From the NCBI GenBank assembly GCA_965613025.1, contig CBFDUE010000005.1:1950-65949 (forward strand): DNA of 64,000 bases, given 5' to 3'. Made by a program: the position numbers and the translations under genes. Every line of letters begins with the position of its first letter. Position 1 is the stretch's first letter. Source of the DNA: an uncultured bacterium (lineage in GTDB: Bacteria; Desulfobacterota; DSM-4660; Desulfatiglandales; JALVMZ01). Positions 8,988 through 45,046 of the stretch are shown here, piece after piece. Under the pieces are notes generated by a model. That model did not search any database and was not told where the DNA came from. It worked only from the letters and a program-made list of their open reading frames with translations.

Positions 8988-9013
8988 GAATATTTTATCT
9001 TTTAGTTGAAACT

Positions 9014-12921: not shown

Positions 12922-13048
12922 ACAACTTAAAAGATTATATAGCCATTCAAAGGTAAAAGTTCAAGTGCAAATTTAATTCCTATCTTATCAATTGGGTTTG
13001 ACCATACCCCCTTTTTTGATTATATCTGAAAGACTAAAGGAGAGATAT

Positions 13049-16909: not shown

Positions 16910-16993
16910 AGATTTGAATTGCTCCCAGATATTAATTAAATTATAATATAAAATTTAAGACATAATTTAAAATAATTTTAGTGAGGTGTTATT

Positions 16994-17209: not shown

Positions 17210-17219
17210 TTGTAGGGAT

Positions 17220-17705
17220 ATGGATTACAGAGTGGGTTTTGGATATGATATCCATCCCCTTAAAGAGAAGAGATCTCTTATAGTTGGGGGAGTAGATATC
17301 CCGTCTGAGTTAGGGACTATTGCCCACTCAGACGGAGATGTGCTGGTTCATGCAATTATTGATGCACTCTTAGGCGCCATTGCATCTGGCAATATAGGGA
17401 TGCACTTTCCAGATACTGATCCTCAAAACAGAGGAAGGGAAAGCATTTCAATGCTAAGAGAAGTGGTCCTTCTTTTGGAAAAGGAGGGATTTAGGATAAA
17501 TAATGTGGATAGCACCATTGTTTTAGAAAGCCCAAGACTTTCCCCCTATGTTGAAAAGATGAAACAGAGGCTTTCAGAGGTATTAAAGATTGAGGGTGAT
17601 AGGATAAATATAAAGCCTAAAAGAGGGGAAGGCCTGGGTGATGTGGGAAGAGGTAAGGCTATAGAGGCCTATGCTGTAGTTATAGTGTATAAAGATAATA
17701 GATGA
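17220..17705 (+). CDS. ispF: 2-C-methyl-D-erythritol 2,4-cyclodiphosphate synthase
   Basis: RVGFGYDIH, HSDGDV..HAI.DALLGA, HFPDTD. Start at ATG 17220. Confidence 0.93.
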   Translation: MDYRVGFGYDIHPLKEKRSLIVGGVDIPSELGTIAHSDGDVLVHAIIDALLGAIASGNIGMHFPDTDPQNRGRESISMLREVVLLLEKEGFRINNVDSTIVLESPRLSPYVEKMKQRLSEVLKIEGDRINIKPKRGEGLGDVGRGKAIEAYAVVIVYKDNR

Positions 17706-17720
17706 AGCGAGGTCATTAAT

Positions 17721-29600: not shown

Positions 29601-30093
29601 GATGAAGGCTTATGATTAGCTCAATGGTATCCTGAACCCCTGCAATCTGAACAATGCCAGTAAAGTGATCTTTCAGTCCTTCAAGCATCTCATCTCTAAA
29701 GTAATTCACTCCACAGAAGATAACAGGCACACCATTAAATAGATCCTCATAATATGCCCTTACAAAATGGAATGCATTATCATCTGTTACAATGATAAGA
29801 TTAGGCCTATCAGAGCTATATTTCCTTTTTATAAGCTCTAAGAAGATCTCCAGATATTTAACACCCTTATACCTTTTTGTATCCATATATTCCACTCTCA
29901 GATCCAGCTCCGGAATATGGGATGAAAGGGTGGTTGATATGCTATCCACCAAACCGTCTGTCCAGGGATAGCCCTTGTGATAGGAATTTATGAGTAATAC
30001 CATATATCTTTTCTGTCTTGGAATCTGAGCTTCGGAGACGGAAAGAAAAAGGAAAGAGGATAATATTAATAAAATAAAAAGATACTTCTTCAT
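26695..30093 (-). CDS. Hybrid sensor histidine kinase (periplasmic binding-like domain, 3 PAS, HisKA, HATPase, REC)
   Basis: INSYH.GY.W; GGIAHDFNN; QVVMNL.VNARDAM; FFTTK..G.GTGLGLS; [19 protein letters not shown]. Confidence 0.92.
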
Positions 30094-30289: not shown

Positions 30290-32206
30290 TTATAAACCAT
30301 ATTTTAATGCAAGCATGGTAATATCATCTGATTGTAAACAGCCTTTAGAAAATTCTTTTATACTTTCCAATACTTTCTCTATAAGGCTCTGAGATGTTAA
30401 TCCATTAAATCTTAAGAGGAGTTCTTTTAATCTGGTTTCTGAAAAAAAATCACCTTTTTCATTCATAGCCTCGGTGACTCCATCGGTGTATAGAAAGATG
30501 GTATCTCCTGGCTGTAAAATCATCTCCTTAGAGCTATATCTGATATTCTCCATAACACCTAAGGCCATATCCCCAGTAAGAGGTAAGGTCTCTATCTGTC
30601 CTGCCCTTCTGAGTATAAGAGGGGGATTGTGTCCACCATTAGAGTAAGTCAATTTTCCAGAATTAATATCTAAGATACATAAAAATAGGGTTACAAACAT
30701 AAGAGACGGATTGTTCAGAACAAGATCTTCATTTACTCGCGTAAGGATATTTTCAGGTTCAAGCCCTTGAGTTGCTTTTGCTTTAATTAGGGTCTTTGTA
30801 ACTGACATAAACAGGGCAGCGGGGACCCCTTTATCAGATACATCTCCTATGACCATACAGAGATGATTTTCGTCAATTAAAAAGAAATCGTAAAAATCTC
30901 CTCCCACCTCTCGGGCAGGTTCTAAGACAGCATACAGATCTAACTCCTCTTTTTCAGGAAAGGGGGGAAATCTCTTTGGCAATATCCCCTCCTGGATCTT
31001 GCGAGCAATCTTAAGTTCACTTTCGATCCTCTCTTTTTCAGCCACAGTCTTTGTAAGCTCCTCAATATATCTCTTTAAGGAATCCTGCATATATTGAAAT
31101 GACTCTGCTAAATGTCCTACTTCGTCCTTAGATTTGATGCCGGGAATTTTTGCATTAAGATTCCCCTTTGCAATATTTTCTGTTGCCTTAGAAAGTGCTC
31201 TAATAGGTTTTGTTATTGAACCAGCTATATATATGATTACAATAAAGAGCAGTATAAATCCGATAATGCCTAAAACTAATACCGTTTTATTTAGTCTCTT
31301 TATGTCAGCTAACAGTTCCTCCTTAGGGAATAACACTCCTAAAGACCATCCGCTGGATGGAAGGGGCTCATATACCAACCAACAGTCCTTACCCGTTACC
31401 ATACTCTTTATATCATCATAACCTGAAAGTCCTCTAATCATTCGTCTTCCGATTTCCCTTAGGTGTCTATCATTTCTCTCTTCTGCTAAGGTAAATATGG
31501 TCTCATTCATAATGAGTCTGCTTTCAGGATGGGTAACAAAAGTGCCATTTTGAGTTATAAGAAAACCATAACCTGTCTTTCCAATCTTAATAGACGATAC
31601 AATCTTCTGAAGCCAGGTTAGAGATATATCGGCTGTCACCACTCCCATAAAACGTTTTTTATTTCCAACCCTTTTATAAAAGGGAACTGAATAGGTGGTC
31701 ATTATGGTATTTCCACCGCCCACATCGTAATAGGGTTCTGACCAGACTGCTCTATCTAATATCTTGGGAATTTGATACCAGTCGTGATGGAAGTAGTCAT
31801 ATTGAATGAAGGTAAAGTCAATCTGATTGCCTGTTTTAAAAAAGTAAGGTGCAAATCTTTTAAAATTTTTATGTCTCTTATAGGGCTCAAATGCAATGGT
31901 AGCTCCAAATATATCAGAGTTGTTTTTGACAACTGTCCTTAAAAGTTCCATTAACTCACTATCATCACAGCTAAGATCTTCAATAAAGGATGCCAGATTA
32001 TATGGCACCATCTCTACTGATCTTAGCACTGTCTCAATTCGATTTACGGTGGAAAGCGCAAGGTTTCTGGCATTGGTTTCAATATTCTTTTTTATGATCT
32101 TGCGAGAAAAGATATAGTTGTAAAAATACACAGCGAAAAATATCAGTGTTACACTGCTCAATACCAAGACAGAAAGTCTTAATGCCAGGCCTTTACCGAT
32201 TTTCAT
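30290..32206 (-). CDS. Cache-HAMP-SpoIIE (PP2C) sensor phosphatase
   Basis: Two TM helices, Cache (DWY..P....WSEPYYD), HAMP (ITKPI..L...DEVG.LA), VGGDFYD, GDVSDKG, YTDGVTEA, SDDIT. Confidence 0.92.
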   Translation of the reverse strand: MKIGKGLALRLSVLVLSSVTLIFFAVYFYNYIFSRKIIKKNIETNARNLALSTVNRIETVLRSVEMVPYNLASFIEDLSCDDSELMELLRTVVKNNSDIFGATIAFEPYKRHKNFKRFAPYFFKTGNQIDFTFIQYDYFHHDWYQIPKILDRAVWSEPYYDVGGGNTIMTTYSVPFYKRVGNKKRFMGVVTADISLTWLQKIVSSIKIGKTGYGFLITQNGTFVTHPESRLIMNETIFTLAEERNDRHLREIGRRMIRGLSGYDDIKSMVTGKDCWLVYEPLPSSGWSLGVLFPKEELLADIKRLNKTVLVLGIIGFILLFIVIIYIAGSITKPIRALSKATENIAKGNLNAKIPGIKSKDEVGHLAESFQYMQDSLKRYIEELTKTVAEKERIESELKIARKIQEGILPKRFPPFPEKEELDLYAVLEPAREVGGDFYDFFLIDENHLCMVIGDVSDKGVPAALFMSVTKTLIKAKATQGLEPENILTRVNEDLVLNNPSLMFVTLFLCILDINSGKLTYSNGGHNPPLILRRAGQIETLPLTGDMALGVMENIRYSSKEMILQPGDTIFLYTDGVTEAMNEKGDFFSETRLKELLLRFNGLTSQSLIEKVLESIKEFSKGCLQSDDITMLALKYGL

Positions 32207-33182
32207 AGTCTATTACCGAAAAGTAGAAATGCTCATACTTAGGGATATTGTCTATTAGACCATTTTCTTTTAATAGCCTTGCAACCCTAAGATAGTCTTC
32301 CTTTTTTAAGACCCCCATCTTTGTATCTAACCCCTGAGTAAGTATGAGGTCTTTCATCCTCTCTAACATCCATCTCTGATGCACTCTGTTTGCAGGTATA
32401 TGAACCCTTTTAAGATTCTTTAATATGACATCCAATGTCTCTTCAGGATGGGTAAAGGCGTAATTCCATCCTTCAATAGAGGCCTTCACAAAGGCTTTGC
32501 AAAGCATAGGATCACTTTTAAACTTATCTTCTAAGGTGTATATGCCATCTTCAGGGAAATTTAGTCCATAGTCATAGAAAAAGAATGTGGAAAGCTCCTC
32601 TGGATCTACCCCCGCCATCAATATGGTATGATATTCATTATACCACATGGCAGATGCCACATCCACCCCTCCCCGCAAAAAGAGATTAACCGAATATGAT
32701 TGTCTGACAGGTATAACCCTTATATTATATTTTTTAAAAAAGGCCTTTGGCTGAACCTGAAAAAGAGGCCCCCAAAGCCCCACCTTTTTTCCATCCATAT
32801 CCTTTGGCCGTTTTATACCAGATGACTTTTTGGCAACAAGCATGAGAGCAGACTTTTGAATGATCTGGGCGATATTTACAAGTCTCACTCCTTCAGCTCT
32901 CATCTTTATTGCGGTTGAAAGCCAGAGAGTGGCAAAGTCAGCCTTTCTTTCTTTGAGGAACACATCAGAGGGTCTCTCTGGCCCACCATCTATTATGGTA
33001 AGGTCTATACCATGCCTCTTGTATATCCCTTTGTGTAATGCCATGTAATACCCGGCAAATTGTGCCTGTGGAACCCACTGTGGAATAAATGTGGCCTTCT
33101 TTAATGTCTTTGCTCCAATATTTGAACATTGAAAAAGGATAGTAAGACATATAATAAAGATATAATAATTTAGCTTAGCCAT
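32193..33182 (-). CDS. NMT1/THI5-like substrate-binding protein
   Basis: Signal peptide; QW.PQAQFAGYY.A..KG.Y...G.D, V..F..AS..GW.YA..HPEE. Start at ATG 33182. Confidence 0.85.
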   Translation of the reverse strand: MAKLNYYIFIICLTILFQCSNIGAKTLKKATFIPQWVPQAQFAGYYMALHKGIYKRHGIDLTIIDGGPERPSDVFLKERKADFATLWLSTAIKMRAEGVRLVNIAQIIQKSALMLVAKKSSGIKRPKDMDGKKVGLWGPLFQVQPKAFFKKYNIRVIPVRQSYSVNLFLRGGVDVASAMWYNEYHTILMAGVDPEELSTFFFYDYGLNFPEDGIYTLEDKFKSDPMLCKAFVKASIEGWNYAFTHPEETLDVILKNLKRVHIPANRVHQRWMLERMKDLILTQGLDTKMGVLKKEDYLRVARLLKENGLIDNIPKYEHFYFSVIDYENR

Positions 33183-33588
33183 TATCTTTAAAGACAATAA
33201 GTTTAAGAATGTTTTTATCACCTTCCCTTTTGTAATTGATCTCATCCACCATCTTTTTCATAAGATATATTCCAAGCCCCCCAATCTTTCTGCTATCCAT
33301 ATCAGATTCTGTATCTGGATCGTGTATAAGTCTTGGATCAAAGGGGATGCCACTATCCCTTATTTCAAAAATGACTCTTCCTATATCACCTCTATAACAT
33401 CTAAGTTCAACCTCTCCCCTTTTTTCTGGGTATGCATATTTAAATATGTTTACAAGTGCCTCTTCAACGGCTACCATAAGTCTCTCTGTCTTTTTCAGAT
33501 TCAGTCCATGCTCTTTTGCACACTCTCTTGCACACGCATTGAATTTTTCAAGATTTTCAAGGCTTGCACTTAGCCTTATTGACTTCAT
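33175..33588 (-). CDS. RsbW-like anti-sigma factor / Ser kinase
   Basis: VEEALVNI..YAY, I.D.GIPFDP, IGGLGIYLM..MVD...Y.R....N.L. Confidence 0.9.
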   Translation of the reverse strand: MKSIRLSASLENLEKFNACARECAKEHGLNLKKTERLMVAVEEALVNIFKYAYPEKRGEVELRCYRGDIGRVIFEIRDSGIPFDPRLIHDPDTESDMDSRKIGGLGIYLMKKMVDEINYKREGDKNILKLIVFKDNG

Positions 33589-33595
33589 GGAATCC

Positions 33596-33931
33596 TTATT
33601 TGAGATTGGAAAGTGCCGATTCAACTGAATCATAGACAGGGATTATCTTTGTAAACCCTGATATATCAAATACCTCTTTTACCACATCTCTGAGTGAGGC
33701 AAGAAAGAGCTTTCCTTGTTCTGACTTAAGTCTCTTTGATGCTGAAAGCACGCTTCTAAGCCCTGCACTGCTGATATATTCAAGTAAGCTGAAATCTAAA
33801 ATAAAATTCTTATTACCTTCAGATATTAATCTATCCATTTCTCTATCAAATTCAGGCGAACTTATGGCATCCATCCTTCCCGTTAAAGATACGACTACAG
33901 TATTACCTTGCTTCGTGACGTTTATCTCCAT
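33596..33931 (-). CDS. STAS domain anti-anti-sigma factor
   Basis: GRMDA, LDFS.LEYISSAGLR (phospho-Ser site), V.EVF.ISGF. Confidence 0.92.
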   Translation of the reverse strand: MEINVTKQGNTVVVSLTGRMDAISSPEFDREMDRLISEGNKNFILDFSLLEYISSAGLRSVLSASKRLKSEQGKLFLASLRDVVKEVFDISGFTKIIPVYDSVESALSNLK

Positions 33932-33950
33932 ATTTTCACCCCCATAGCTT

Positions 33951-34997
33951 TTAAGGTGATCGGTTTTTATAAATCTCTTCCCACTCCCTTTTTACCATTG
34001 AAAGGAGTCTTTTATCTCGTTCATGGTAAATTTTTATGGAATCCCAATTGGGAAAGTCTAATAGCCTCTGCATAAGCAACCCATCTGTATCAAACCATCT
34101 GGGAAGCAATCCTCCAAAGAAATATCCTCTCTTTCTCAATATCTCAATCCCCCAACCAATCCAGGGATAAGTAAGATTACACCAGGCTTGGATAACCTTT
34201 GCTCCTCTTTTTAATACCTTATCTTCCACAATACCAAATTCTCTTTCAAAGTCTCTTCCCATATCCCATATGGCAATCCTGGCAACCTGAGCAAAGTCAA
34301 AATACTGCTCCTCAATCTTTGTCTTTGCCGATTTAGGAGGAGGCATTACTTCTGAAAAGGATATATCTCTCATATCATCAAATTCAGAATATAGAAAGAT
34401 CGCATTTTCCTTATAGATCTCTGGTATAAAAACGGTGTGTCTTTTGGGTTTAAAGGTTCTGAAACAGAGCATGGTGCTTACCCTGTGCCTTCCTCCCCCT
34501 TCCTTTGAATATACCTCGGCAGGGATTAGATCTATCTCAAATGCCATGGTGATCATATTTCTATTGTGGACCAATTTCTGCGATATTATGTGTCTGCAGA
34601 CTGGTTCTCCATAAACCAGTTCTATATTAAAGAGCTTGGTGGCAACCTCAATGCCATGCTCAAAGAGTTTGGAAAATATACCTTGTCCACCCCTATAAGA
34701 TTTGTGAACCAGACCCGCTCCGGATTCATAGATTCCGCTATAGGGTGCACTGTTAAATAGGGCGTTATGGCCAACTATATCACCCTTTGAAGTCCTGGCC
34801 ACAGAGGAAATTACTCTTCTTTCCCTATTTTCTTTAATCAGCCTTTCAGGATCAATATATGTCTTAATAGGGTATTCCTTTCCATAGACAGATAGAAAAA
34901 GCCTGCATACACCTTCAGCGTCCTCTTCTCTAAAAAGATCCACCTTCCAATCTTGATCTGGCTCTATTATATATTCCACTCTCTGATGCTCTGACAT
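33951..34997 (-). CDS. GNAT-fold protein with C-terminal extension
   Basis: F..VYG.EYP, GDIVGH.AL, E.GAGLV..SYRG.G, C-terminal GYFFGGLLP.W. Confidence 0.6.
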   Translation of the reverse strand: MSEHQRVEYIIEPDQDWKVDLFREEDAEGVCRLFLSVYGKEYPIKTYIDPERLIKENRERRVISSVARTSKGDIVGHNALFNSAPYSGIYESGAGLVHKSYRGGQGIFSKLFEHGIEVATKLFNIELVYGEPVCRHIISQKLVHNRNMITMAFEIDLIPAEVYSKEGGGRHRVSTMLCFRTFKPKRHTVFIPEIYKENAIFLYSEFDDMRDISFSEVMPPPKSAKTKIEEQYFDFAQVARIAIWDMGRDFEREFGIVEDKVLKRGAKVIQAWCNLTYPWIGWGIEILRKRGYFFGGLLPRWFDTDGLLMQRLLDFPNWDSIKIYHERDKRLLSMVKREWEEIYKNRSP

Positions 34998-35006
34998 ATA
35001 TTCCCC

Positions 35007-36077
35007 CTATCTATTCCACCAGCCTATTCTGTCTATATCTCTGTATATCACATCAGCAATTACCTTCATACCCTTTTTGTTTAAATGGAATATATCTAAG
35101 AATAATTCATATCTATTTTGATGTCCATGTATAGGGGAATAGACATCTATTAGAGGGAGATTTAGTCTCTTTGGAAGGATTTCAGAAAACAGTGTAATCA
35201 TAAAAATATCATATTTGCCCCTTTCCTCCCAGATTTTCCTCCAATTGGATTGGATGGTATCAAGAGCCCTTGCATCTTTGTCATCTATATCAGGATCAAT
35301 GGCATAGGGTAGATTGATAATAGCGACCTTAGTTCCCATCTTTATGGCATCTTCAACAATAATCTTGAAGTTTTCTTCAATTGATGAAACACATTCTTTA
35401 AGTTTATATTCCTCATCCAACCTGGGGAAACCCTTTCTCTCTGTTGCGCTTCTCCTTATGAGGTAGTATGCACAGAACCTTCCCAAGATCTTATTCCACC
35501 ACGGGCTTTTTCTTTCAAGTGCCATTACAAATTCCCAGGGCCAGGGAGTCCCGGGTTTCCATTTTGAGCCCATCATCCATGCCTGGGTTATATCATTTCC
35601 TCCTATCTCAATTAAAAGGATATCGGGTTTGATTTTACGCAGTTCCCTCTCCCATAAGATCCTGTGTTGAAATGAATTGTATGTAGGATTTCCTGCATTA
35701 ATTATCTCCCATTCATGTCTTCCTTCTCGTTCAAGGATCTTTTGAAGCCTTATGGACCAGAGATATTTCTCTTTTAGCAGCTTTACCCCAAAGAATGTGG
35801 ACTCACCTATAAGTAGTAGCCTCTTCTTTTCACCATCTGGAGCTGGCTCAGGCCCCCTGCATCTAAATCTGTTTATATTTATGAGGGGATGGTGAAAGTT
35901 CTTCTTTAATACCCAATATAGAGGTGGATCGGTCTTTTCCAAAAATCTACTATATGGATATTCGCCAATTATCTTTGAATGAAAAGGAACACCAAAATGT
36001 ATGCGATGATAGATCCGTGAGGCCAATTCAATCCCTGCTACAGATCCAGCAAAACCAAGAAGCATATAATCTATCAT
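35007..36077 (-). CDS. SGNH/GDSL hydrolase family protein
   Basis: GESTFFG (block I), INAG.P.YNS (II), GGND (III), D.FHL (V). Confidence 0.8.
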   Translation of the reverse strand: MIDYMLLGFAGSVAGIELASRIYHRIHFGVPFHSKIIGEYPYSRFLEKTDPPLYWVLKKNFHHPLININRFRCRGPEPAPDGEKKRLLLIGESTFFGVKLLKEKYLWSIRLQKILEREGRHEWEIINAGNPTYNSFQHRILWERELRKIKPDILLIEIGGNDITQAWMMGSKWKPGTPWPWEFVMALERKSPWWNKILGRFCAYYLIRRSATERKGFPRLDEEYKLKECVSSIEENFKIIVEDAIKMGTKVAIINLPYAIDPDIDDKDARALDTIQSNWRKIWEERGKYDIFMITLFSEILPKRLNLPLIDVYSPIHGHQNRYELFLDIFHLNKKGMKVIADVIYRDIDRIGWWNR

Positions 36078-37270
36078 CTCTCTTTCCCTTTTAAATAGAA
36101 TACCAAAAAGGCAGATAATATAGCCATAATTGAACAGAAATAAAACAATGAATTAAAACCCATTTTTGTAACAATTGGCCCTCCTATAAAAGGCCCAAGG
36201 AAGAATCCACCCTGAAACATCTGAAGCCCTAAGTTCATATTGAATGCTCTAAAGCGGTAAGATGAGATATCAAACATCAATCCATTAAACACAGGCATTG
36301 CAATTCCCCATCCAAGCCCAAGTGTCAGACCCATGCCGTAAAATGATATTTTTCCCCTCACATGTGCAAGAAGAAGATAGGAGGCAGCGACTATAAACAT
36401 GGTAAAAGATGCTAAAAGAGGTTTATTCATCCTGTCAAAAAGGGAACCTGCTCCCAACCTTATGGCTATCTCTCCTCCAGTTGCAAGGCTCATAAAAAGC
36501 CCTGTAGCTGGAATGCCTATACTTCTTCCATAGCCATCTAAGAAAAAGAATACAATTGCATGGGTGCTGTAAAACAGAAGCATGGAAAGAAGCAGAGCCA
36601 TTATCCTCAATTCCTTGAGATCATTAAGTATCTCTTCCCAACTGAGTATGGATCTGTTAATTGAATCAGGTTTTTGTTCTGTCTCAGGAGTATGTATCCA
36701 TCTTAGCATAAAGATTACTAATAAAGTGATAAATGAAAATCCAAGCAGAGTATTAGTAAATCCACCACTTACCTTATCCATTAGTGGAAGAATAGGCGGT
36801 ATTATGGTATTTGGTATAAGGATTATAATTGACAGAAGGCCAAAAGCCTGGGCACTTCTGCCTTTGGGAATATAGTCAACAGTTAAGACCATTAGGGCAG
36901 TTCCTAAGATCACAAATGCAATACCATGCAAGGTGCGAACAATTAAAATTCCACCAAGACCAGAGACCATTTTATAGGATGCAAGGGTTAATATTACAAA
37001 AACTGTGCCTAAGTTAAGATAGAGTCTTACATTGCGGGCATGGATGAATGCACTGATTACAGGCCTAAAAAGGAGAGAAGCTCCGCTAAATATGGCTATT
37101 ATCAGACCAAACCATTTAGGATCAATTGGAAGGGTTCGCAGATATTCATAAAATTCAAAAAATACTGAGATATTTGAATATGCAATAAAGGTTACAAGAA
37201 ATATTAAAAGCAGTTCTCTGTTCCATAATCCATTTTCGCTTTTAGGTCTATTGTGGCCTCTATTATTCAT
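36074..37270 (-). CDS. MFS transporter
   Basis: 398 aa with about 12 hydrophobic segments; R.LHG, G.L.DR motifs. Confidence 0.85.
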   Translation of the reverse strand: MNNRGHNRPKSENGLWNRELLLIFLVTFIAYSNISVFFEFYEYLRTLPIDPKWFGLIIAIFSGASLLFRPVISAFIHARNVRLYLNLGTVFVILTLASYKMVSGLGGILIVRTLHGIAFVILGTALMVLTVDYIPKGRSAQAFGLLSIIILIPNTIIPPILPLMDKVSGGFTNTLLGFSFITLLVIFMLRWIHTPETEQKPDSINRSILSWEEILNDLKELRIMALLLSMLLFYSTHAIVFFFLDGYGRSIGIPATGLFMSLATGGEIAIRLGAGSLFDRMNKPLLASFTMFIVAASYLLLAHVRGKISFYGMGLTLGLGWGIAMPVFNGLMFDISSYRFRAFNMNLGLQMFQGGFFLGPFIGGPIVTKMGFNSLFYFCSIMAILSAFLVFYLKGKER

Positions 37271-38111
37271 CTTTATAGTTAATTAAACGCATGAGAAGGT
37301 TACAGGCCACCTCTTTCCTATACCAGGCACTTGCACGAATATCATCAATGGGACGGATAACTTTTTTCACCTGTTCTGAGGCCCTATTTAGCATTTCAAT
37401 TGAAAGTCTATTACCAATAAGGAGACTTTCTACATCATGGCTTCTTATAACAGTGGGTCCCACACTCCCCCATGAAAATCTGGCATCTTCCACAACACCT
37501 TCAGCAGAGAGTCTAAGCAGGGCACAGAAGCTCACAATAGAGATTGAAAGTGCCTTTCTTTTCCCCACCTTTTCAAAATGATGGATATTGAATCCATATG
37601 CCTTTGGTATCAGAATGCCTGTAAGTATCTCTCCATTTTTTAATTGCGTCTTTCCTGGGCCTTTAATGAATTGATCTATGGGAAGCTGTCTTTTGGAATT
37701 TGATGTATGTAATTCCAGTTGGGCTTCAAGCACATACAGGGGAGGGAGAGTATCGCCAGCAGGGGATGCAGTTACAATATTTCCTCCAATGGTTCCCATA
37801 TTTCTTATCTGAGGTGATCCAAGCACCTCTATAGCCCTGATTAATACAGGGAAATTAGTATTAATTATATCTGATCTCAATATATCCGAATGGCTTACTC
37901 CTGCTCCGATAAATACCTTATCGCCTCTATCTTCAATGACCTTGAGCTCTTCTATCTTTTCTAAACATACCATAGGCCCCACTTTTATAATCCCTTTTCT
38001 AAGCTTAACTAAAAGGTCAGTTCCACCTGCATAGATTAAGGCATCTGGGACATGCTCTATCACTTCCCATAATTCCTTTAGACTATGGGGCATAAAGAGA
38101 CTGTCTTTCAT
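37263..38111 (-). CDS. Xanthine dehydrogenase-family FAD-binding (medium) subunit
   Basis: AGGTDL, GSPQIRN.GTIGGN..TASPAGD, PIDDIRAS..YR. Confidence 0.92.
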   Translation of the reverse strand: MKDSLFMPHSLKELWEVIEHVPDALIYAGGTDLLVKLRKGIIKVGPMVCLEKIEELKVIEDRGDKVFIGAGVSHSDILRSDIINTNFPVLIRAIEVLGSPQIRNMGTIGGNIVTASPAGDTLPPLYVLEAQLELHTSNSKRQLPIDQFIKGPGKTQLKNGEILTGILIPKAYGFNIHHFEKVGKRKALSISIVSFCALLRLSAEGVVEDARFSWGSVGPTVIRSHDVESLLIGNRLSIEMLNRASEQVKKVIRPIDDIRASAWYRKEVACNLLMRLINYKDE

Positions 38112-38587
38112 TTTAGATTATCTTGCCTTTTGGTCTTTATATATGCTGCTTCAATTGCATCCACAATCTTTTGATAACCTGTGCATCTACAGAGATTTCC
38201 ACTTATACCCTTTCTGATCTCATCCCTTGTAAGCTCTGGATTATTCTTCAGCAGGTAAAGTGCTTCCATAATCATACCAGGGGTGCAAAATCCGCATTGA
38301 ATTGCCCCCTTTTCTATAAATGCCTCCTGTATGGGATGAAGACTGTCTTCAGAGCCAATCCCTTCAATGGTTGTCACCTCTCTTCCATGCAATTGGGGTG
38401 CAAGCATAAGGCAGGATAGCTTTGATCTTCCATCTACAAGGATCGTGCATGCTCCGCACTCCCCTTCACCACACCCCTCCTTAGTGCCTGTAAGAGCAAG
38501 ATCTTCCCTTAATACATCTATCACCCTTTTAAATGGGGATACCTCTAACTCTACCTCTTTTCCATTTAAGATAAACTTGACCTTCAA
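38108..38587 (-). CDS. Xanthine dehydrogenase-family 2x[2Fe-2S] (small) subunit
   Basis: GTKEGCGEGECGACT, QCGFCTPG, NLCRCTGY. Confidence 0.94.
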   Translation of the reverse strand: MKVKFILNGKEVELEVSPFKRVIDVLREDLALTGTKEGCGEGECGACTILVDGRSKLSCLMLAPQLHGREVTTIEGIGSEDSLHPIQEAFIEKGAIQCGFCTPGMIMEALYLLKNNPELTRDEIRKGISGNLCRCTGYQKIVDAIEAAYIKTKRQDNLK

Positions 38588-40906
38588 TTATCTTTCCCCC
38601 TCTCTTCTTTCCAATGCCCTAAGCACCTTTTCTGCTGTGATAGGTGATGTAAATATTCTTGCACCACATGCATCTGCTATGGCATTGGAAATAGCAGGAA
38701 GTGGCCCATTCATTGCTATCTCACCTGATCCTTTAAGGCCAAATGGCCCTGTATCTTCACTCAGTTCAATGGCAATGGATTCCATATCTGGTATATCTCT
38801 TGCTCCAGGGATGATATAGGTTGTAAGATCGTCTGTCTTGATCCTGCCCTGTTCCACTGAAAAATCTTCATAGAGTGCATATCCAATTCCCTGAGCAATC
38901 CCACCATGCATCTGTTGTTCAAAGAGTTGGGGATTCAGTATCTTTCCACAATCGCTTATTGTAAGATATCTCTTTACTTCCACTTCTCCAGTGAGTCTAT
39001 CAATTTCCACATAGGCAAGATGAACACCATAGGAAAATATCAGATGTGGAATACCGTGCAAGGACAACCTTTCATCTTCAATGACCTTTTCCTCACATAC
39101 AGGCGCCTTAAATAGATACCTCTCAGTTCTTTCATCTTCTTCCATAAGAATTGAGATATCTCTTAGACTTACCTCTTTTCCCCTATCCCTATCCCTGATC
39201 TTTCCAGGTAATATCTCTATTGCCTCTATATCTTGAGACTTAAGCATATCTAAGGCTCTACGTAAGATCTTCTCTTTAAGTTTCAGGGTTGCCCTGATCA
39301 ATGCATTTCCATAGGTGTAGGTGGTCCTACTTGCAGAGGAAGAGCCAGATGGAAGACATCTCTTTGTGTCAGGGAGCACAAGCTCCATCTGTTTAGGGGT
39401 CTGATTTAGTATGGAACCTGCAATCTGAAGATATGTGCTTGCATTACCTTGTCCCATATCCACAACCCCAGCATATACCCTGATCTTCCCATCATCTGTA
39501 AGCTCAATCTTTGCCTCAGCAGAATCAGGTATTACAGGCCCATAACCCATCGCATGGAAGACACTTGAAACACCTATCCCCCTCAATTTAAATCTCCCTA
39601 CCTCTGACTTCCATCTCTTCCTTTCCTTCCACCATGGATGGTTTTTTAAGCTTTCAAGGCATTCCCTAAGACCAGTTGAAGTTGTAAGTTTCATTCCCAC
39701 AGGGTTCTCGTCCCCCTCTATAAGGGCATTCTTAAGCCTTATCTCCAATGGGCATATCCCCAATCTATCTGCCATCATATCAACTACCTGTTCCATTGCA
39801 CCCATCACCTGAGGAACACCAAACCCTCTGAAGGCTCCCCCCACTGGGCTGTTTGTATATACAGCCCATGCCCTTAGATGGGTATGGGGGATCCTATAGG
39901 GTCCTCCTGAATGCTCCAGTCCCAGTGCCATTACAGCCCCTCCAAGATGATCATAGGGGCCTGTATCATAGTAGATATCCACATTCAGGGCATGAAATGC
40001 GCCATCTGACTTTGCACCTAATCTATAATGCAATTTTGCTGGATGCCTCTTTACCCCTGAAATGATGCTCTCTTCTCTGTCCCACCACATCTTTATGGGT
40101 CTATTGGGGCAATTTATGGCCGCAAGCCCCAAGAGGCATTGAACAGTGATTCCGTCCTTACCACCAAATGCCCCTCCGCAATAGGGTGCAATGATTCGCA
40201 CCCTATCCAGTTTTATTCCCAATGCCTCTGCCACTTCAAATCTGTCTCTAAATGGGCTCTGGGTGGAGGCAACTATTTCAAGTATCTGACTATCCTCATG
40301 ATAGATTGCAAAGCCACATTCTGTCTCTAGATATGCATGCTCCTGATGGGCGAAGCTAAAGTTAGCTTCCACTATCTCATCACAATCTCTAAATGCATCC
40401 TCTCCCCTCCCTTTCCTTATCTCCCCTTTAAGTAGGATATTTCCATCTGGATTATCTTCATGAATTAGCGGTGCACCCTGCTTTAGTGCTTCCATAGGGT
40501 CAAATACAGGGGGGAAAGGATCATATCTTACCTCAATCAGATTTATTGCCTCTTTTAAGATATCCCTTCCTTCTGCAATTATTAGAGCTATTGCATCACC
40601 AAAGTGTCTTATCTTATCCTCTACAAGAACTGGTTGATCCCTTTTGACAACCCCAACCCTATTGCTGCCTTTTATATCTTTAAAGGTAAGGATCTTTATT
40701 ACCCCATTGAGTGATAGGGCCTTTGATATATCAATATCCCTTATCTTTGCATGCGAAACACCTGCTCTCTTAACCCCAGCCCATAGCATATCCTTTGAAT
40801 AATAATCTGCTGCATATCTTTCCCTTCCAGTTACCTTGGACACCGCATCGTATCTGGAGCAGGACTTCCCTATCTCATATATGAATTCAGTCTTACCCTT
40901 TTTCAT
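38588..40906 (-). CDS. Xanthine dehydrogenase-family molybdopterin-binding (large) subunit
   Basis: GGAFGGK, AFRGFG.PQ, DMGQG, SASR, GG..QG.G.AL.E, G.KGSGE (catalytic Glu). Confidence 0.93.
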   Translation of the reverse strand: MKKGKTEFIYEIGKSCSRYDAVSKVTGRERYAADYYSKDMLWAGVKRAGVSHAKIRDIDISKALSLNGVIKILTFKDIKGSNRVGVVKRDQPVLVEDKIRHFGDAIALIIAEGRDILKEAINLIEVRYDPFPPVFDPMEALKQGAPLIHEDNPDGNILLKGEIRKGRGEDAFRDCDEIVEANFSFAHQEHAYLETECGFAIYHEDSQILEIVASTQSPFRDRFEVAEALGIKLDRVRIIAPYCGGAFGGKDGITVQCLLGLAAINCPNRPIKMWWDREESIISGVKRHPAKLHYRLGAKSDGAFHALNVDIYYDTGPYDHLGGAVMALGLEHSGGPYRIPHTHLRAWAVYTNSPVGGAFRGFGVPQVMGAMEQVVDMMADRLGICPLEIRLKNALIEGDENPVGMKLTTSTGLRECLESLKNHPWWKERKRWKSEVGRFKLRGIGVSSVFHAMGYGPVIPDSAEAKIELTDDGKIRVYAGVVDMGQGNASTYLQIAGSILNQTPKQMELVLPDTKRCLPSGSSSASRTTYTYGNALIRATLKLKEKILRRALDMLKSQDIEAIEILPGKIRDRDRGKEVSLRDISILMEEDERTERYLFKAPVCEEKVIEDERLSLHGIPHLIFSYGVHLAYVEIDRLTGEVEVKRYLTISDCGKILNPQLFEQQMHGGIAQGIGYALYEDFSVEQGRIKTDDLTTYIIPGARDIPDMESIAIELSEDTGPFGLKGSGEIAMNGPLPAISNAIADACGARIFTSPITAEKVLRALERREGER

Positions 40907-40994
40907 TGTTCTTTTTGCTCCATATTTATGAATAAGACTTAAAAAGTCTAATGTGCTAAAAAAGTCAAGCTCTTATTTTCTATACTTCTAAATC

Positions 40995-41022
40995 TTGCCT
41001 TTATGAAATATTTTTATAGAAT
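40995..41022 (+). promoter_or_regulatory. Possible sigma70-type promoter of the 41080-44364 operon
   Basis: TTGCCT-N16-TAGAAT in the AT-rich divergent intergenic region. Confidence 0.35.
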
Positions 41023-41079
41023 CCTTAAATAGACACTATATGAAAGAAGTGATATCATATACAAAAAAAGGATAAGATT

Positions 41080-42399
41080 ATGGATGCTAAAAAGACCGAA
41101 ACCATATCTTTAAAGCTCTTTTCAGATATCTCCCTTCTACCCTTAGCCACATCATTTGTGGAAAATGGCTCTAAAGTCTTTGGCCTTTCATCTAAGGATT
41201 CCTTGAGCTTAGCACTTGCCACAGAAGAGATCTTTGCCTATCTATGTAGAGTTACTCATGTTCCCTTTAATCTGGAAATCCTGGCTCAAAAGGGTGGTTA
41301 TTATGTAAAGGTGGATTTTCTACTTCCCATTGAGGATTTTAATATGCGAATCTTCAATATTGCATCATCCATTTCCTTAGAAGATGAGCAGGGGCTGGAA
41401 GAGCTTGGGCTCTTTATTGCATCCAGAAAGGTGGATCGTTTTCAGTTATCTGAGCTTTCTCCTGGTGGGATAATCCTATCTCTTATCAAGGAAAAGAGTT
41501 ATCCTGAGACAGATAATTTAAGAATTCCTGAGCCTGAGGAGGCAGAAAGCTATTCCATTAAAAGACCCTCTCCTGAAGAGTTAAAATTGTTTGTGGTCAT
41601 TACAGACAGTAATTATCCTAAGCTATTGATTCCCAAAAGTTTTAGATACCCAGGTAAAGTGGTGGATATGTTTTTGTCTGGTCATTATGATGCCGCCCTT
41701 GCATATGGGGAGACAGGTTCAATTGTGGGTGGTATTGTATGGCAGTGGTCTGGGCCAAAGACAGTTGAATTTTTTGGCCCTTATGTCTTTAGTAAATCGT
41801 TTTCAAAGGATATATCACGGGATCTTTTAGATAGTTGCATATCTTCTATTGCAAAATCACCAGTGGTTGCTTTAATAAACAGGCTTCCAACTGATGAACT
41901 TCCAAAAGAGCAATTTGAACTTTTAGGAGCTCTGGATATAGTTAAAGATGATAACTCTATTGTGTCTCTTCCCACATACTTTCGCCAGATGCAAGAAGAT
42001 ACAGGTTCTTATGTCTGGATAGATCCGGCTATTGAAAAGTTTTTAAGATCGGAATATGGTCGTTTGGTTCTTCCAAGAGAGATAAGGATTGTAAGAGATT
42101 TGGGTGAAGAAAAAGAAAGATATTCTGTCCTATCAACGGATTTTGATAGGTCTTTAAATATGGTGATCTTAAGACCCATACGTTCAGGGAAAGATTCAAT
42201 GGATAATATAAGAAATCATATTAATCTCTTTCAGAGGGAGTCCATCAGATCCGTGTTTTTTGAAATGGATCTTGCGCACCCCTGGCAGGTCAGCTTTACT
42301 GAAGGCCTTTTAAAAAGTAATTTTTCTCCCAAACTAATCTTACCCTATGCGGGGGATTCAGATATCTTGGTATTTCAGTGGGGTAATAGGGGGTCATGA
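41080..42399 (+). CDS. Degenerate RsbW-like HATPase domain fused to a GNAT-like domain
   Basis: The N-terminus aligns by eye with the RsbW at 33175-33588 (GL..K....L.LA.EE; LGLFIA.R.VD). The middle has G.IVGG.VW and FFGPY; the C-terminus has F.P.L.LP. Confidence 0.55.
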   Translation: MDAKKTETISLKLFSDISLLPLATSFVENGSKVFGLSSKDSLSLALATEEIFAYLCRVTHVPFNLEILAQKGGYYVKVDFLLPIEDFNMRIFNIASSISLEDEQGLEELGLFIASRKVDRFQLSELSPGGIILSLIKEKSYPETDNLRIPEPEEAESYSIKRPSPEELKLFVVITDSNYPKLLIPKSFRYPGKVVDMFLSGHYDAALAYGETGSIVGGIVWQWSGPKTVEFFGPYVFSKSFSKDISRDLLDSCISSIAKSPVVALINRLPTDELPKEQFELLGALDIVKDDNSIVSLPTYFRQMQEDTGSYVWIDPAIEKFLRSEYGRLVLPREIRIVRDLGEEKERYSVLSTDFDRSLNMVILRPIRSGKDSMDNIRNHINLFQRESIRSVFFEMDLAHPWQVSFTEGLLKSNFSPKLILPYAGDSDILVFQWGNRGS

Positions 42400-43511
42400 T
42401 TTTCCCTCAGCTTGATAGGCTTGTCCCATCTCATGTAAAACGCTTTGAGGCATATATCCCCAGCAAACCAGATGATGTGCTCATGAAATTGTATGGCTGC
42501 TCTCGCCTCTTTAGACTCAATAACAATGAAAATCCATTAGGCCCACCTCCCTCTGCACAAAAGGTGATAAAAGAGTTTCCTCCTCCTAAGGCATCTATCT
42601 ATCCAAGTGGTGATGCATATCATCTGCGTTATAGGCTTGCAGAAAAATTTGGCCTTCATCCAGATCAGATTTTGGTCGGAAATGGGGCAAATGAGGTCAT
42701 TACCTTTGTGATTAAGGCATTTTGTCAGGAAGGAGATAATATCATCACTGCTGATAAGACTTTTGCAGTATATGAGTGGGTGGCTGAATTTTCTGGCTTT
42801 AAGGCCAAGTTGGTGCCATTAAAAGATTTTGGATTTGATGATGAAGGGATGCTTCAAGAGATTGATGATAGGACCAAGATAATCTTTATCTGTAATCCCA
42901 ATAATCCAACTGGCAAATACTGGGATGAGGTAAAGCTTAGGAGATTTTTAGACAGGATAGGTGGAAATCAGATCGTGGTTATTGATGAGGCCTATTTTGA
43001 ATTTGTAGAGAAAGAGGACTATCCCAATGGTATATACCTTATTTCTGAATATCCTAATCTTGTAATATTTAGGACATTTTCTAAGATGTATGCCCTTGCA
43101 GGGCTAAGAATAGGTTATCTGGTGGGTTCCTTAGATGTGGTAAACATAATTCGAAAGACATGTGTTGTCTATTCAGTAAATGCACTTGCACAGTTAGCGG
43201 CAGTTGCCTGCCTTGATGATGAGGAGGAGCATATCTTTAAGACAAGAGAGATGGTTAAAGAGGGAAAAGAATTTCTTAAAAGAGAGCTCAAAAATCTTGG
43301 TCTTACCACAGTTTCAGGTGAAGGTAATTTTATTATGGTAAAACTTCCCATAAATGATAACCTTGCCTACAGAAGACTAATGACCCAAGGGGTTATGGTT
43401 CGCACAATGACAGGCTTTAGATTCCCTAACTGGATAAGGGTCACCATCCATAAGATGGAGGCTATGGAGGCATTTGTTGAGTCTCTTTCAAAGATTTTGA
43501 AAAATGTATAG
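42396..43511 (+). CDS. HisC-like PLP-dependent aminotransferase (class I/II)
   Basis: LN.NENPLG, GNG..E, CNPNNPTG, DEAY, RTFSK.YALAGLRIGY. Confidence 0.88.
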   Translation: MIFPQLDRLVPSHVKRFEAYIPSKPDDVLMKLYGCSRLFRLNNNENPLGPPPSAQKVIKEFPPPKASIYPSGDAYHLRYRLAEKFGLHPDQILVGNGANEVITFVIKAFCQEGDNIITADKTFAVYEWVAEFSGFKAKLVPLKDFGFDDEGMLQEIDDRTKIIFICNPNNPTGKYWDEVKLRRFLDRIGGNQIVVIDEAYFEFVEKEDYPNGIYLISEYPNLVIFRTFSKMYALAGLRIGYLVGSLDVVNIIRKTCVVYSVNALAQLAAVACLDDEEEHIFKTREMVKEGKEFLKRELKNLGLTTVSGEGNFIMVKLPINDNLAYRRLMTQGVMVRTMTGFRFPNWIRVTIHKMEAMEAFVESLSKILKNV

Positions 43512-43557
43512 ACTTTAATTGTGTGAGAATAGAAAAATTGATTTATGAGGTTAAGTT

Positions 43558-44364
43558 ATGAAAAAAGAAGAGCCTCTATTTAATAGAACCTTGCCTATAT
43601 TGGGAGAGAGGGGTCTTTCAGTCATTTCAAAGGCGAGTATATCAATATCTGGCTTAGGAGGTGTTGGTGGAGGGACATTCCTTGCGCTTGTTAGAGCAGG
43701 GGTGAGGAGGTTCAGGCTCGCTGAGAATGGAATTTTTGATGCTCCAGATATGAATAGACAGATGGCTGCATTTGGCTTTACCCTTGGACGCCCGAAGTTG
43801 GATGTTTATGTTGAACTTGCCAAATCCATTAATCCAGATTTGGAACTTGAGCTTTTTCCGGAAGGGATAAGTGTTGAAAATCTGGAAAGATTTCTTGAAG
43901 GAAGCGATGTTTATGTGGGAGTAATTGATTATGAAAAAGGAGAAGATGTCAAAAAGATGACCCCAAAGTTTTTAAAAAAGTTCCATATCCCCCTATTTAC
44001 ATGTGCAGTAATAGGTTTTGGGGCATTGATGATAAATTACCATCCAGATGAGATGATGCCAGATGAATTCTGGCAATTGGCCTTTGAAAAGTCAAAAGAT
44101 ATACCATTTGGTCTTTTACCCCATAAGATTAGCAGATGTTTTAATAGTGAAACCATAAAACGTATTGAAAAGGCATTTAATAACAATATATCTGCTACGA
44201 CAAGTATAGGTGCGTTGTGTTCAAATGTTTTACTTGCTTCAGAAGTTCTCATATGGCTTTTAAGAGGTATGGAATATGTTAAAAGAGGACCGGTATTTGC
44301 TCCATATTTTGTTGCCCTCGATCTAATGGACATGTCTTTTTCAATAAAAGACATAAGGGAGTAG
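43558..44364 (+). CDS. ThiF/HesA/TcdA-like adenylyltransferase
   Basis: F.R...LG, GLGGVGG, L.RAGV, MNRQ, G.PK, INP; no Zn-binding CxxC pairs. Confidence 0.8.
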   Translation: MKKEEPLFNRTLPILGERGLSVISKASISISGLGGVGGGTFLALVRAGVRRFRLAENGIFDAPDMNRQMAAFGFTLGRPKLDVYVELAKSINPDLELELFPEGISVENLERFLEGSDVYVGVIDYEKGEDVKKMTPKFLKKFHIPLFTCAVIGFGALMINYHPDEMMPDEFWQLAFEKSKDIPFGLLPHKISRCFNSETIKRIEKAFNNNISATTSIGALCSNVLLASEVLIWLLRGMEYVKRGPVFAPYFVALDLMDMSFSIKDIRE

Positions 44365-44464
44365 AAAAAAGAATATTATAGAGGAATTCTTGCTATAGGC
44401 CAAGGTTTGCCTTAGCAGACTCAGCAGCACGAAGGGCAAGATTCCTGTCAATATCTACAATCAT

Positions 44465-44710
44465 GCTGATCTTGGCTGATCTTGGATAGTTTCAAAAAAA
44501 TAATTTAGTGATATGCAGTATCCGTATCTTTCAAGGGGGCTTTCCAGCTCCTTTCTCAACACCAGGGCCAGGAAGCTTAAGAACACATGCCCTCTGATGT
44601 TTTCATCCTTCTTCAATAAGATCATACCCGCTACCATTTCTCGCATGTGCGGTCCGAACCTGAGACGAATAGACGGTGAACCTTTCCGATTTTCAACGAT
44701 TTGCAGATAA
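44465..44710 (-). mobile_element. Internally deleted IS1634-family transposase remnant
   Basis: The minus strand keeps N-terminal YLQIVENRK (44683-44709) and C-terminal DENIRGHVFLSFLALVLRKELE. A putative end GCTGATCTTG is duplicated at 44465-44484. Confidence 0.7.
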
Positions 44711-44770
44711 AGATCCTGCCCACAAGATAGCCTGCCACTGCACCCATATACCGTTTCTTATATCGCATCC

Positions 44771-45010
44771 CTATTCTCCCTTGCTAAGACCCTTTCTTCT
44801 TTGCTTTATCTTCTGAAGCCCCTGTTCAATATCCTTTGCGCTGAATCTCTTAAGACAATTGGTGCACTGATATATCTCTTCTACTATCTTGTCATAGACC
44901 AAGTTATCAGAAAAGTTTACCCTTCTAAATCTCATGGAAAAGTTGTAAATCCTTTTAAAGTCCCTACCCTTGCATTTGTCACATTCAAAATACTCTATCA
45001 TATCTTCCAT
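44771..45010 (-). CDS. Small double-CxxC zinc-ribbon-like hypothetical protein
   Basis: CDKC and CTNC; GGAGG SD upstream. Confidence 0.65.
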   Translation of the reverse strand: MEDMIEYFECDKCKGRDFKRIYNFSMRFRRVNFSDNLVYDKIVEEIYQCTNCLKRFSAKDIEQGLQKIKQRRKGLSKGE

Positions 45011-45046
45011 AACCCAAATCCTCCCTTTGATCGCTACCCATCATAT

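Follow-up and report, generated by a model that had tools for sequence, protein, structure and literature searches.

A gene cluster at 30290-44364 of the window, as we call the whole 64,000-nucleotide stretch of contig CBFDUE010000005.1 analysed here (from an uncultured bacterium of the Desulfatiglandales, phylum Desulfobacterota), combines the genes of a partner switch with those of a molybdenum (Mo) hydroxylase, an aminotransferase, a transporter and acetyltransferase-like proteins. Twelve of its 13 genes are a conserved unit, and in our reading the window holds one copy of a module that anaerobes share and that has passed from lineage to lineage. The invariant core of this module is a pair of genes, one for a 439-amino-acid protein, here called U439, and the other for a paralog of the aminotransferase HisC. 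We propose that the signalling half and the enzyme half of the module work together, in a switch that resembles SiaABCD and controls, as its output, a pair of enzymes for an N-heterocyclic amino compound; in our judgement this proposal has an even chance of being right.

Conservation of the cluster around U439 and HisC

The conservation of the cluster was examined through U439, whose relatives number at least 238, are about 440 amino acids long and come mostly from metagenome bins of Desulfobacterota. An exhaustive profile search returned 299 U439 representatives at E 1e-30 or better among 1.84 billion. The 63 genomic loci encoding a U439 relative, cited below by handles such as L030, were compared with the window proteins, including by tblastn; 26 of them have at least 8 kb on each side and served as a well-flanked subset. 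U439 and HisC are adjacent in 60 of the 63 loci, and the remaining three break off at a contig edge. The frequencies of the other genes are given in Table 1. Among the well-flanked loci, HisC was present in all 26, xdhL in 23, the MFS transporter gene in 19, the gene for U348, a second protein without a Pfam match, in 13; one or more partner-switch genes likewise occurred in 13. Genes of the xanthine dehydrogenase (XDH) family and partner-switch genes occurred together in 12 of the 26.

A first-pass annotation, made from the DNA letters, had read the cluster as a self-contained unit that couples enzymes to a sensor. It had suggested a conservation search to define core genes and had made the idea depend on the co-occurrence of the two groups of genes in other genomes. 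The comparison of the 63 loci defines these core genes, and the co-occurrence was found in the 12 loci mentioned above. The coupled unit thus stands in outline, with two parts of the original cluster, ThiF and an insertion-sequence (IS) remnant at the right border, falling outside it. ThiF had one weak match (32%) in the 63 loci and none in the 26 well-flanked ones, and the gene, counted as a member at first, looks like a lineage-specific passenger.

Since the genes recur in the same order in other genomes, their arrangement in the window is not due to chance. In L099 all twelve genes are colinear in one operon. The usual order is U439-HisC-xdhL-xdhS-xdhM-MFS-(SGNH)-U348-STAS-RsbW-(NMT1)-PP2C, from which the window differs solely by an inversion of U439-HisC. 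Most relatives, such as L099, L100 and L101, are colinear at the junction of xdhL and U439, and the 173-bp divergent region between these two genes in the window reads as a junction made by inversion of the U439-HisC pair. Rearranged orders were found as well, with the switch upstream in L030 and L060 and the XDH genes on the other strand in L038, L045 and L048. The set recurs in Bacillota (L030 and L058, in Desulfosporosinus and Veillonellaceae bins). All-against-all clustering of the 832 open reading frames (ORFs) from the 63 loci revealed no further widely shared family and no sigma factor.

A Methanospirillum contig from an archaeal bin (L061, 1-5916) carries xdhS, xdhM, U439, HisC, U348 and an aryl-CoA-ligase-like gene. 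Its HisC copy groups within the bacterial ones in the tree described below, which suggests either a transfer between domains or a mis-binned contig.

The partner switch and its predicted contact with U439

The signalling genes of the cluster have the sequence features of a partner switch, namely a PP2C phosphatase, a STAS protein with a conserved serine and an HATPase_c_2 kinase with intact motifs. The ATP-binding residues of RsbW (E58, N62, D93 and G118-G119-L120-G121) are invariant in 10 sequences. The STAS protein scored 83 bits against TIGR00377 (cut-off 53) and carries the motif D-Y-I-S-S-A-G-L-R, in which Y52-I53-S54-S55-A56-G57 is invariant in 14 sequences; S54/S55 is the presumed phosphorylation site. 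The phosphatase contains a HAMP domain at residues 327-378 and a SpoIIE/PP2C domain at residues 446-635. In a hydropathy scan, hydrophobic stretches at residues 5-23 and 302-320 bracket its dCache domain, which we infer to be periplasmic and outward-facing. Its best NCBIfam match, to SiaA (NF038263), scores 98 bits where the cut-off is 700, which means that the protein is not a SiaA equivalog. The same scan placed a hydrophobic stretch at the N-terminus of the NMT1 protein (residues 16-34). No ABC permease or ATPase partner for this protein was found among the cluster genes, and it would be a periplasmic, outward-facing co-sensor.

A sigma-factor target for the switch was not found among the conserved families of the 63 loci, and a distant target is possible. 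The genome of the window, which is 98.6% complete, contains only two Sigma70_r2 genes, on two other contigs, one for an RpoD-like protein of 598 amino acids and one for an RpoH-like protein; it contains no SigB/F-type sigma factor. STAS genes number two in this genome. The first-pass annotation had reported no sigma factor, ABC permease or ATPase, and none is present among the genes scanned at 26695-48247. Its idea that the output of the switch may be enzymatic is supported by the lack of a conserved sigma neighbour, by the RpoD-like and RpoH-like genes being the only sigma-70 family genes of the genome and by the predicted docking described below.

Pfam and NCBIfam are silent on the two genes that had been called acetyltransferases (U348 and the fusion U439), and their predicted folds agree with GNAT. 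In the AlphaFold (AF2) model of U439, with a predicted local distance difference test (pLDDT) score of 88.6, the N-terminal ~140 residues match the structures of SpoIIAB and RsbW (Foldseek E 2.6e-06; template modelling (TM) score by target 0.75-0.88). The middle part superposes on GNATs (Foldseek E 8e-06 and weaker; TM by target 0.6-0.7), with a tandem GNAT-like module spanning residues ~155-439. The N-domain also matched the RsbW family of the cluster in a profile comparison (hhalign probability 97.5%, E 5.4e-12). At the sites that are invariant in RsbW, U439 has Tyr in place of N62 and D-F-N in place of D-x-G, and G118-G119 fall in a deletion. Judged by these residues, the N-domain of U439 appears to be a kinase-dead copy of RsbW.

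U348 is a member of a tandem GNAT family for which Pfam has no model. In its AF2 model (pLDDT 92.0), the N-terminal half is a GNAT (Foldseek E 4.9e-11) that aligns to GNATs over residues 14-187 (VIA; Z 13.1, root-mean-square deviation (rmsd) 2.5, 154 residues aligned). The acetyl-CoA loop of GNATs has the motif R/Q-x-x-G-x-G/A, and U348 keeps it as Y-R-G-G-Q-G-I with R102 invariant. The second half has a GNAT-like topology, and the two-domain GNATs 4my0 and 9emd span both halves (VIA), the match to 9emd having a Z of 10.8 but an rmsd of 7.0. Residues 156-422 of U439 were aligned with U348 by hhalign (E 1.6e-04, probability 51%); direct BLASTP between the two was non-significant (E 0.1), and the relation is thus seen only by profile comparison. 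U439 looks like U348 with an RsbW-like head. The stretch of U439 aligned to the U348 loop reads S-F-S-K-D-I, which means that the acetyl-CoA loop is lost. Profile searches against PDB sequences returned nothing below E 0.4 for U439 and nothing below E 0.006 for U348.

The possible contact between STAS and U439 was examined by complex prediction with STAS and residues 1-150 of U439, each given as an alignment, in three runs with three controls. The interface score ipSAE was 0.79 in all three runs, whereas the best control reached 0.00; the pLDDT of the partner was 92 and the contacts agreed to 100%. When this method was calibrated, 58 of 80 solved pairs reached the mark, as did 2 of 110 mismatched ones. 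The models predict that STAS docks on the RsbW-like domain of U439, with STAS S54/S55 against U439 E49/E50, G110 and R116. All four U439 residues are invariant in 29 of 29 aligned sequences, including those from loci without a nearby switch. A phosphate on the STAS serine would face the two invariant glutamates in these models, and this would explain the release of STAS.

The link between the two halves was also examined at the level of loci and genomes. The switch lies directly beside U439-HisC even in loci without XDH (L030, L034 and L060). For U439 loci with no switch nearby, a STAS-RsbW pair was found elsewhere in 5 of the 5 genomes examined. The proteins of these distant pairs are 40-55% (STAS) and 30-46% (RsbW) identical to those of the window, and an NMT1 gene was nearby twice. 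Across 301 genomes sampled evenly from the phylum, with cluster-type STAS counted at E 1e-25 or better, U439 was found in 34 genomes (24 of 201 genera) and cluster-type STAS in 57. The two occurred together in 30 genomes, while 4 had just U439, 27 had just this STAS and 240 lacked both, so that 30 of 34 genomes with U439 have this STAS, compared with 27 of 267 without. One of the four U439-only genomes is 67% complete, and two others have only partial U439 matches.

Three related cases were noted in passing. L102 (G145:C20, ~6300-11700), in a genome that belongs to the same taxonomic order and lacks U439, has a closely related PP2C-RsbW-STAS set, its phosphatase 55% identical to that of the window, divergent from hisI, hisG and a class-I aminotransferase gene; this is a second tie between such a switch and the histidine pathway, in a single case. 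In L108 (G113:C40, 3419-5915), STAS-RsbW is directly followed by a gene for a Pfam-recognised, 502-amino-acid fusion of HATPase_c_2 and GNAT, with a second STAS, a PP2C and an NMT1 gene a few kb away at 10908-14308. L108 is a sister arrangement to U439 without HisC. Lastly, a U439 homolog at G045:C79:8966-10255 has a single in-frame TGA; an error in sequencing, recoding of the codon or decay to a pseudogene could account for it.

The enzyme genes and the limits of the cluster

The HisC protein of the cluster scores above the TIGR01141 cut-off by sequence. It is not the sole HisC of its genome; a better-scoring copy (371 bits) lies on another contig beside cmk and rpsA, and a second HisC above the cut-off was found elsewhere in 6 of 6 genomes examined (this one and five others). 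Identity between the window HisC and its counterparts at the 60 loci is 58-83%, a high value given how distant the hosts are, and points to a slowly evolving clade. In a quick maximum-likelihood tree, the cluster copies formed one clade with a Shimodaira-Hasegawa-like approximate likelihood ratio (SH-aLRT) of 96, a stem of 1.93 and short inner branches. This clade has 47 rows, 44 of them cluster rows and three re-fetched copies of the same genes; the rows L092 and L094, on a branch 9.4 long, are wrongly extracted ORFs. The housekeeping copies fell outside the clade, and the Bacillota and archaeal (L061) copies were nested among those of Desulfobacterota. A predicted protein of 813 amino acids, P0198, consists of U439 fused to the HisC paralog and is 59% identical to the window HisC in this part. 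It was the one longer, fused form returned by the exhaustive search; a word-index search for such forms returned none.

The hydroxylase fell short of every NCBIfam equivalog cut-off. The NCBIfam scores of xdhL were 505.5 for PucD (cut-off 783.65), 500.6 for XdhA (cut-off 780) and 434.7 for HcrA, the alpha subunit of 4-hydroxybenzoyl-CoA reductase (cut-off 994.55), so it is an equivalog of neither PucD nor XdhA. xdhM was likewise below every NCBIfam cut-off, its match to the beta subunit of 4-hydroxybenzoyl-CoA reductase (110.4 against 404.55) covering residues 5-113 only. The solved chains nearest to xdhL are the alpha subunit of 4-hydroxybenzoyl-CoA reductase (313 bits) and nicotinate dehydrogenase (309.5 bits). 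Four loci without XDH (L007, L044, L046 and L053) have an adenosine deaminase gene inside the cluster, and the copy tested, that of L044, scored 244.8 bits against TIGR01430 (cut-off 216.55). Mo-hydroxylases and adenosine deaminase both install an oxo group on an N-heterocycle, and the presence of the deaminase where XDH is absent is therefore a hint at the class of substrate. We suggest, with low confidence, that the substrate is an N-heterocyclic amino compound.

The MFS protein has 9 hydrophobic stretches, and its best NCBIfam match is a weak one to the metallophore exporter CntE (38.9 bits against a cut-off of 235). The hydropathy scan found no hydrophobic stretch in the SGNH hydrolase. 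Occasional members of the loci encode XdhC and FGE-sulfatase-like, benzoate-CoA-ligase-like and ADP-forming CoA-ligase-like domains. Genes resembling those for aryl-CoA ligases come after U348 in L023 and L061 and are found downstream in L031. In L006, genes for a TonB-dependent receptor and Peripla_BP_2 (15034-18193) come after U348; it is the sole locus with neighbours of the metal-uptake type.

The genes of the window were called from the list of ORFs together with Pfam and NCBIfam scans (Table 1), and the 13 tightly packed genes described by the first-pass annotation were recovered at their positions. The minus arm would be transcribed in the order xdhL, xdhS, xdhM, MFS, SGNH, U348, STAS, RsbW, NMT1 and PP2C, its neighbours being separated by gaps of 0-19 bp or overlapping by 4-71 bp. 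U439 and HisC overlap by 4 bp, and 46 bp separate HisC from ThiF. One promoter-like site was found in the intergenic region, at 41030-41058(+). Such sites were no more frequent than in shuffled sequence (41 against a mean of 46), nor were terminators (11 against a mean of 12), so the scan is silent on transcription units.

Table 1. Features of the cluster and their occurrence in the 63 loci that encode a U439 relative. Positions are those of the window.
Feature	Position	Strand	Basis	Loci
dCache/HAMP/SpoIIE-type PP2C phosphatase, membrane sensor	30290-32206	-	Pfam SpoIIE 1.7e-52, MCP-like_PDC_1 1.3e-32, dCache_1, HAMP	18/63
NMT1/THI5-like solute-binding protein	32193-33245	-	Pfam NMT1 8.9e-37	8/63 (SpoIIE in 6 of these 8 by tblastn)
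RsbW-type serine kinase	33175-33633	-	Pfam HATPase_c_2 1.6e-27	18/63
Single-domain STAS, anti-sigma-antagonist type	33596-33931	-	Pfam STAS 2.7e-23	21/63
U348, 348-amino-acid tandem GNAT	33951-34997	-	Predicted fold; no Pfam/NCBIfam match	26/63
SGNH/GDSL hydrolase (esterase or deacylase)	35007-36077	-	Pfam Lipase_GDSL_2 4.6e-09	7/63
MFS transporter	36074-37270	-	Pfam MFS_1 2.8e-28	40/63
xdhM, FAD subunit of XDH-family Mo-hydroxylase	37263-38111	-	Pfam FAD_binding_5 2.7e-49, CO_deh_flav_C	38/63
xdhS, 2x[2Fe-2S] subunit	38108-38587	-	Pfam Fer2_2 1.7e-34, Fer2	38/63
xdhL, molybdopterin subunit	38588-40906	-	Pfam MoCoBD_1, MoCoBD_2, Ald_Xan_dh_C	40/63
Divergent intergenic region xdhL/U439, 173 bp	40907-41079	.	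ORF coordinates	
U439, 439 amino acids, predicted RsbW-like pseudokinase domain and tandem GNAT-like module	41080-42399	+	Predicted fold, hhalign; no Pfam/NCBIfam match	
HisC paralog, aminotransferase	42396-43511	+	TIGR01141 305.6 bits (cut-off 276.55)	60/63 (directly after U439)
ThiF family	43558-44364	+	Best match PRK08223, 146 bits (cut-off 266)	1/63
DUF1786	45047-46123			0/63

The right border was described by the first-pass annotation as an IS1634 scar. The repeats of the genome agree with an IS scar, for which IS1634 is a candidate family. The piece at 44400-44760 matches 14 other places in the genome, several of them at contig ends, and the element is thus probably multi-copy and a cause of breaks in the assembly. 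The piece itself has no Pfam match, and tblastn of this fragment against plasmids gave no match. Another copy of it (L076) matches the C-terminal end of DDE_Tnp_1 (27.7 bits against a cut-off of 23), and 44400-44760 can therefore be read as a transposase remnant. Between this remnant and DUF1786 lies a small ORF (44771-45040(-)) with two C-x-x-C pairs, zinc-ribbon-like, with Pfam hints at E 0.006 and weaker.

Several neighbours were considered as members of the unit and rejected. DUF1786 was absent from all the loci. A hybrid histidine kinase gene at 26695-30093(-), which sits 196 bp downstream of the phosphatase gene and encodes an N-terminal ABC_sub_bind-type domain, three PAS domains, HisKA, HATPase and a receiver, had only partial matches of 20-41%, in varying places, in 13 of 63 loci. 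Genes for a radical-SAM protein, PepSY, a small GNAT, a thiamine pyrophosphate (TPP) enzyme and a methyltransferase accompany the unit in Syntrophorhabdus-type loci only and were taken to be lineage synteny.

Proposed mechanism, rival readings and related systems

In the mechanism that we propose, the enzyme half consists of U439 and its dedicated HisC, usually with an XDH-family hydroxylase, an MFS transporter and U348 and sometimes with an SGNH hydrolase. The signalling half would comprise a membrane PP2C phosphatase with dCache, an RsbW-type kinase and STAS, sometimes with an orphan NMT1 protein. RsbW would phosphorylate STAS on a serine of the ISSAG motif, and an external ligand, acting through dCache and the binding protein, would set the activity of the phosphatase. 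Dephosphorylated STAS would then dock on the kinase-dead RsbW-like domain of U439, and docking would switch the U439/HisC pair and through it the flux of the pathway, with no sigma factor involved. The coupling of U439 to HisC is indicated by the 4-bp overlap of their genes and by the single predicted 813-amino-acid fusion. As for the chemistry, which we put forward with low confidence, the substrate would carry an amino side chain on a purine-, pyrimidine- or imidazole-type ring. HisC might interconvert its amine and ketone forms, the hydroxylase or the deaminase might add an oxo group to the ring, U348 might acylate the amine and the SGNH hydrolase deacylate it, and the MFS transporter might carry the compound across the membrane.

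A number of observations weigh against this proposal. A serious one concerns the docking, which is seen in models only and whose score may reflect likeness rather than binding, because the complexes SpoIIAB-SpoIIAA and RsbW-RsbV have already been solved. The GNAT-like module of U439 may be catalytically inactive, as its acetyl-CoA loop is lost; the earlier suggestion that the acetyltransferases activate and transfer a compound may hold for U348, which keeps the loop, but finds no such motif in U439. P0198 is a singleton on one contig and could result from a frameshift error at the 4-bp overlap. The hydroxylase is below all equivalog cut-offs, and the enzymes of solved structure closest to it use an aromatic CoA thioester and nicotinate as substrates. 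The switch is nearby in only 13 of the 26 well-flanked loci. The odds ratio of 67 for the genome-level association overstates the link, since the profile for STAS derives from copies linked to the cluster and the genomes, where related, do not count as independent. There are also the 27 genomes with this STAS type but without U439. At 12 such STAS loci examined, a related RsbW-GNAT fusion lay beside STAS-RsbW in only one, which indicates that the STAS family has other partners too.

In an alternative that we find rather unlikely, the partner switch acts elsewhere. It would control a transcription regulator, the RpoH-like sigma factor or some further protein that RsbW binds, and the enzymes would be co-transcribed cargo of which the expression, not the activity, is controlled; the RsbW-like domain of U439 would have no role beyond dimerisation, pairing with RsbW or acting as a decoy. 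The cluster RsbW keeps all kinase motifs, and canonical RsbW and SpoIIAB proteins hold a sigma factor. Proteins of this type are dimers, and a pseudokinase copy could pair with RsbW. The absence of U439 from 27 of the 57 genomes with the STAS type and of a fusion from 11 of the 12 loci examined would also fit a switch with targets elsewhere. However, the 63 loci share no conserved sigma factor or DNA-binding protein, and the genome lacks a SigB/F-type sigma factor. The invariant residues of the U439 N-domain lie on the predicted STAS face, and the STAS type accompanies U439 in 30 of 34 genomes.

We consider it unlikely that the cluster is instead a unit that makes and exports a small heterocyclic compound for secretion, for instance a signal or a metal chelator, with the switch tuning production to an external cue. 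The Mo-hydroxylase would then supply ring oxygen from water where O2 is absent. The MFS gene, present in 40 of 63 loci, has a metallophore exporter as its best, weak match, L006 continues with a TonB-dependent receptor and Peripla_BP_2, and aryl-CoA-ligase-like genes occur in L023, L061 and L031. Acylation, deacylation and export are known together from self-protection schemes, which the gene set recalls. Yet no scaffold-building enzyme is conserved, metal-uptake neighbours are found in 1 of 63 loci, the MFS transporter could work in either direction and an extracytoplasmic sensor would fit an incoming compound equally well. Finally, many of the loci come from related Desulfobacterota and about half lack a switch nearby, but a mere travelling together of enzyme and switch genes by inherited synteny is already disfavoured and very improbable, as the set is kept while its order varies between lineages (the window inversion; L030, L060; L038, L045, L048), recurs in Bacillota (L030, L058) and in part on the Methanospirillum contig (L061), and is associated at the genome level (30/34 against 27/267).

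Partner switches are textbook regulators of sigma factors, and a few act on enzymes. A switch with U439 as its receiver would point to a general wiring of STAS to metabolism, in which STAS reaches an enzyme-like protein by docking on a dead anti-sigma kinase that this protein carries. The module is widespread, being present in 34 of 301 sampled genomes of the phylum, in Bacillota and on a methanogen contig. It offers several families for naming, namely U439, U348 (neither with a Pfam model), a distinct HisC clade and a distinct Mo-hydroxylase subfamily, all in organisms central to anaerobic carbon turnover. A bolder version of the proposal, which we find doubtful, is that kinase-dead anti-sigma-factor domains, whether fused to enzymes or paired with them, are a new class of receivers through which STAS controls metabolism directly. 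The switch would then gate an anaerobic route in which the Mo-hydroxylase, using water, oxygenates a heterocyclic amine made by HisC; the product would be acylated and would leave the cell as a new signal or metal-binding compound. If so, this would be a compound of syntrophic and sulfate-reducing communities.

The first-pass annotation knew of no described system with this composition, and our search of the literature, supplements not covered, likewise found no description of the gene set or of an RsbW-acetyltransferase fusion. The closest domain architecture is that of uncharacterised HATPase_c_2 + Acetyltransf_1 fusions in the Atlas, mostly from Thermodesulfobacteriota, in which an RsbW-like domain also precedes a GNAT. 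Those fusions are recognised by Pfam, whereas U439 is not, appears to have lost both the ATP and the acetyl-CoA motifs and is tied to HisC. Among the enzymes, the hydroxylase has the same three subunits and domains as PucCDE/XdhABC, nicotinate dehydrogenase and 4-hydroxybenzoyl-CoA reductase but is below every NCBIfam equivalog cut-off. The HisC protein is above the TIGR01141 cut-off and has HisC enzymes as its best solved relatives, but is an extra paralog in a clade of its own on a long stem, always paired with U439.

For the switch itself, the RsbU/RsbV/RsbW-SigB system of Bacillus and the SpoIIE/SpoIIAA/SpoIIAB-SigF system use the same PP2C, STAS and HATPase_c_2 families. The U439 N-domain superposes on SpoIIAB and RsbW, and its predicted contact with STAS resembles the solved complexes. 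The cluster differs from both systems in having no sigma factor in 63 loci and in having a second, apparently kinase-dead RsbW fused to a GNAT-like module. In SiaABCD of Pseudomonas aeruginosa, the PP2C phosphatase SiaA, the kinase SiaB and the switch protein SiaC are reported to control the diguanylate cyclase SiaD (10.1101/674879; PMC8457831). The cluster and SiaABCD, as reported, share a membrane PP2C with HAMP, a small kinase and a phosphorylatable switch protein, with an enzyme rather than a sigma factor under control. They differ in that the window phosphatase is far below the SiaA cut-off, no GGDEF protein is encoded among the cluster genes, the sensor combines dCache with an NMT1 binding protein, and the predicted output is linked to an aminotransferase and docks through an RsbW-like, kinase-dead domain of its own. 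SiaABCD is thus the nearest system in logic, of which the cluster is not a member, and what is new in the cluster is that a known kind of regulation is joined to uncharacterised enzyme families.

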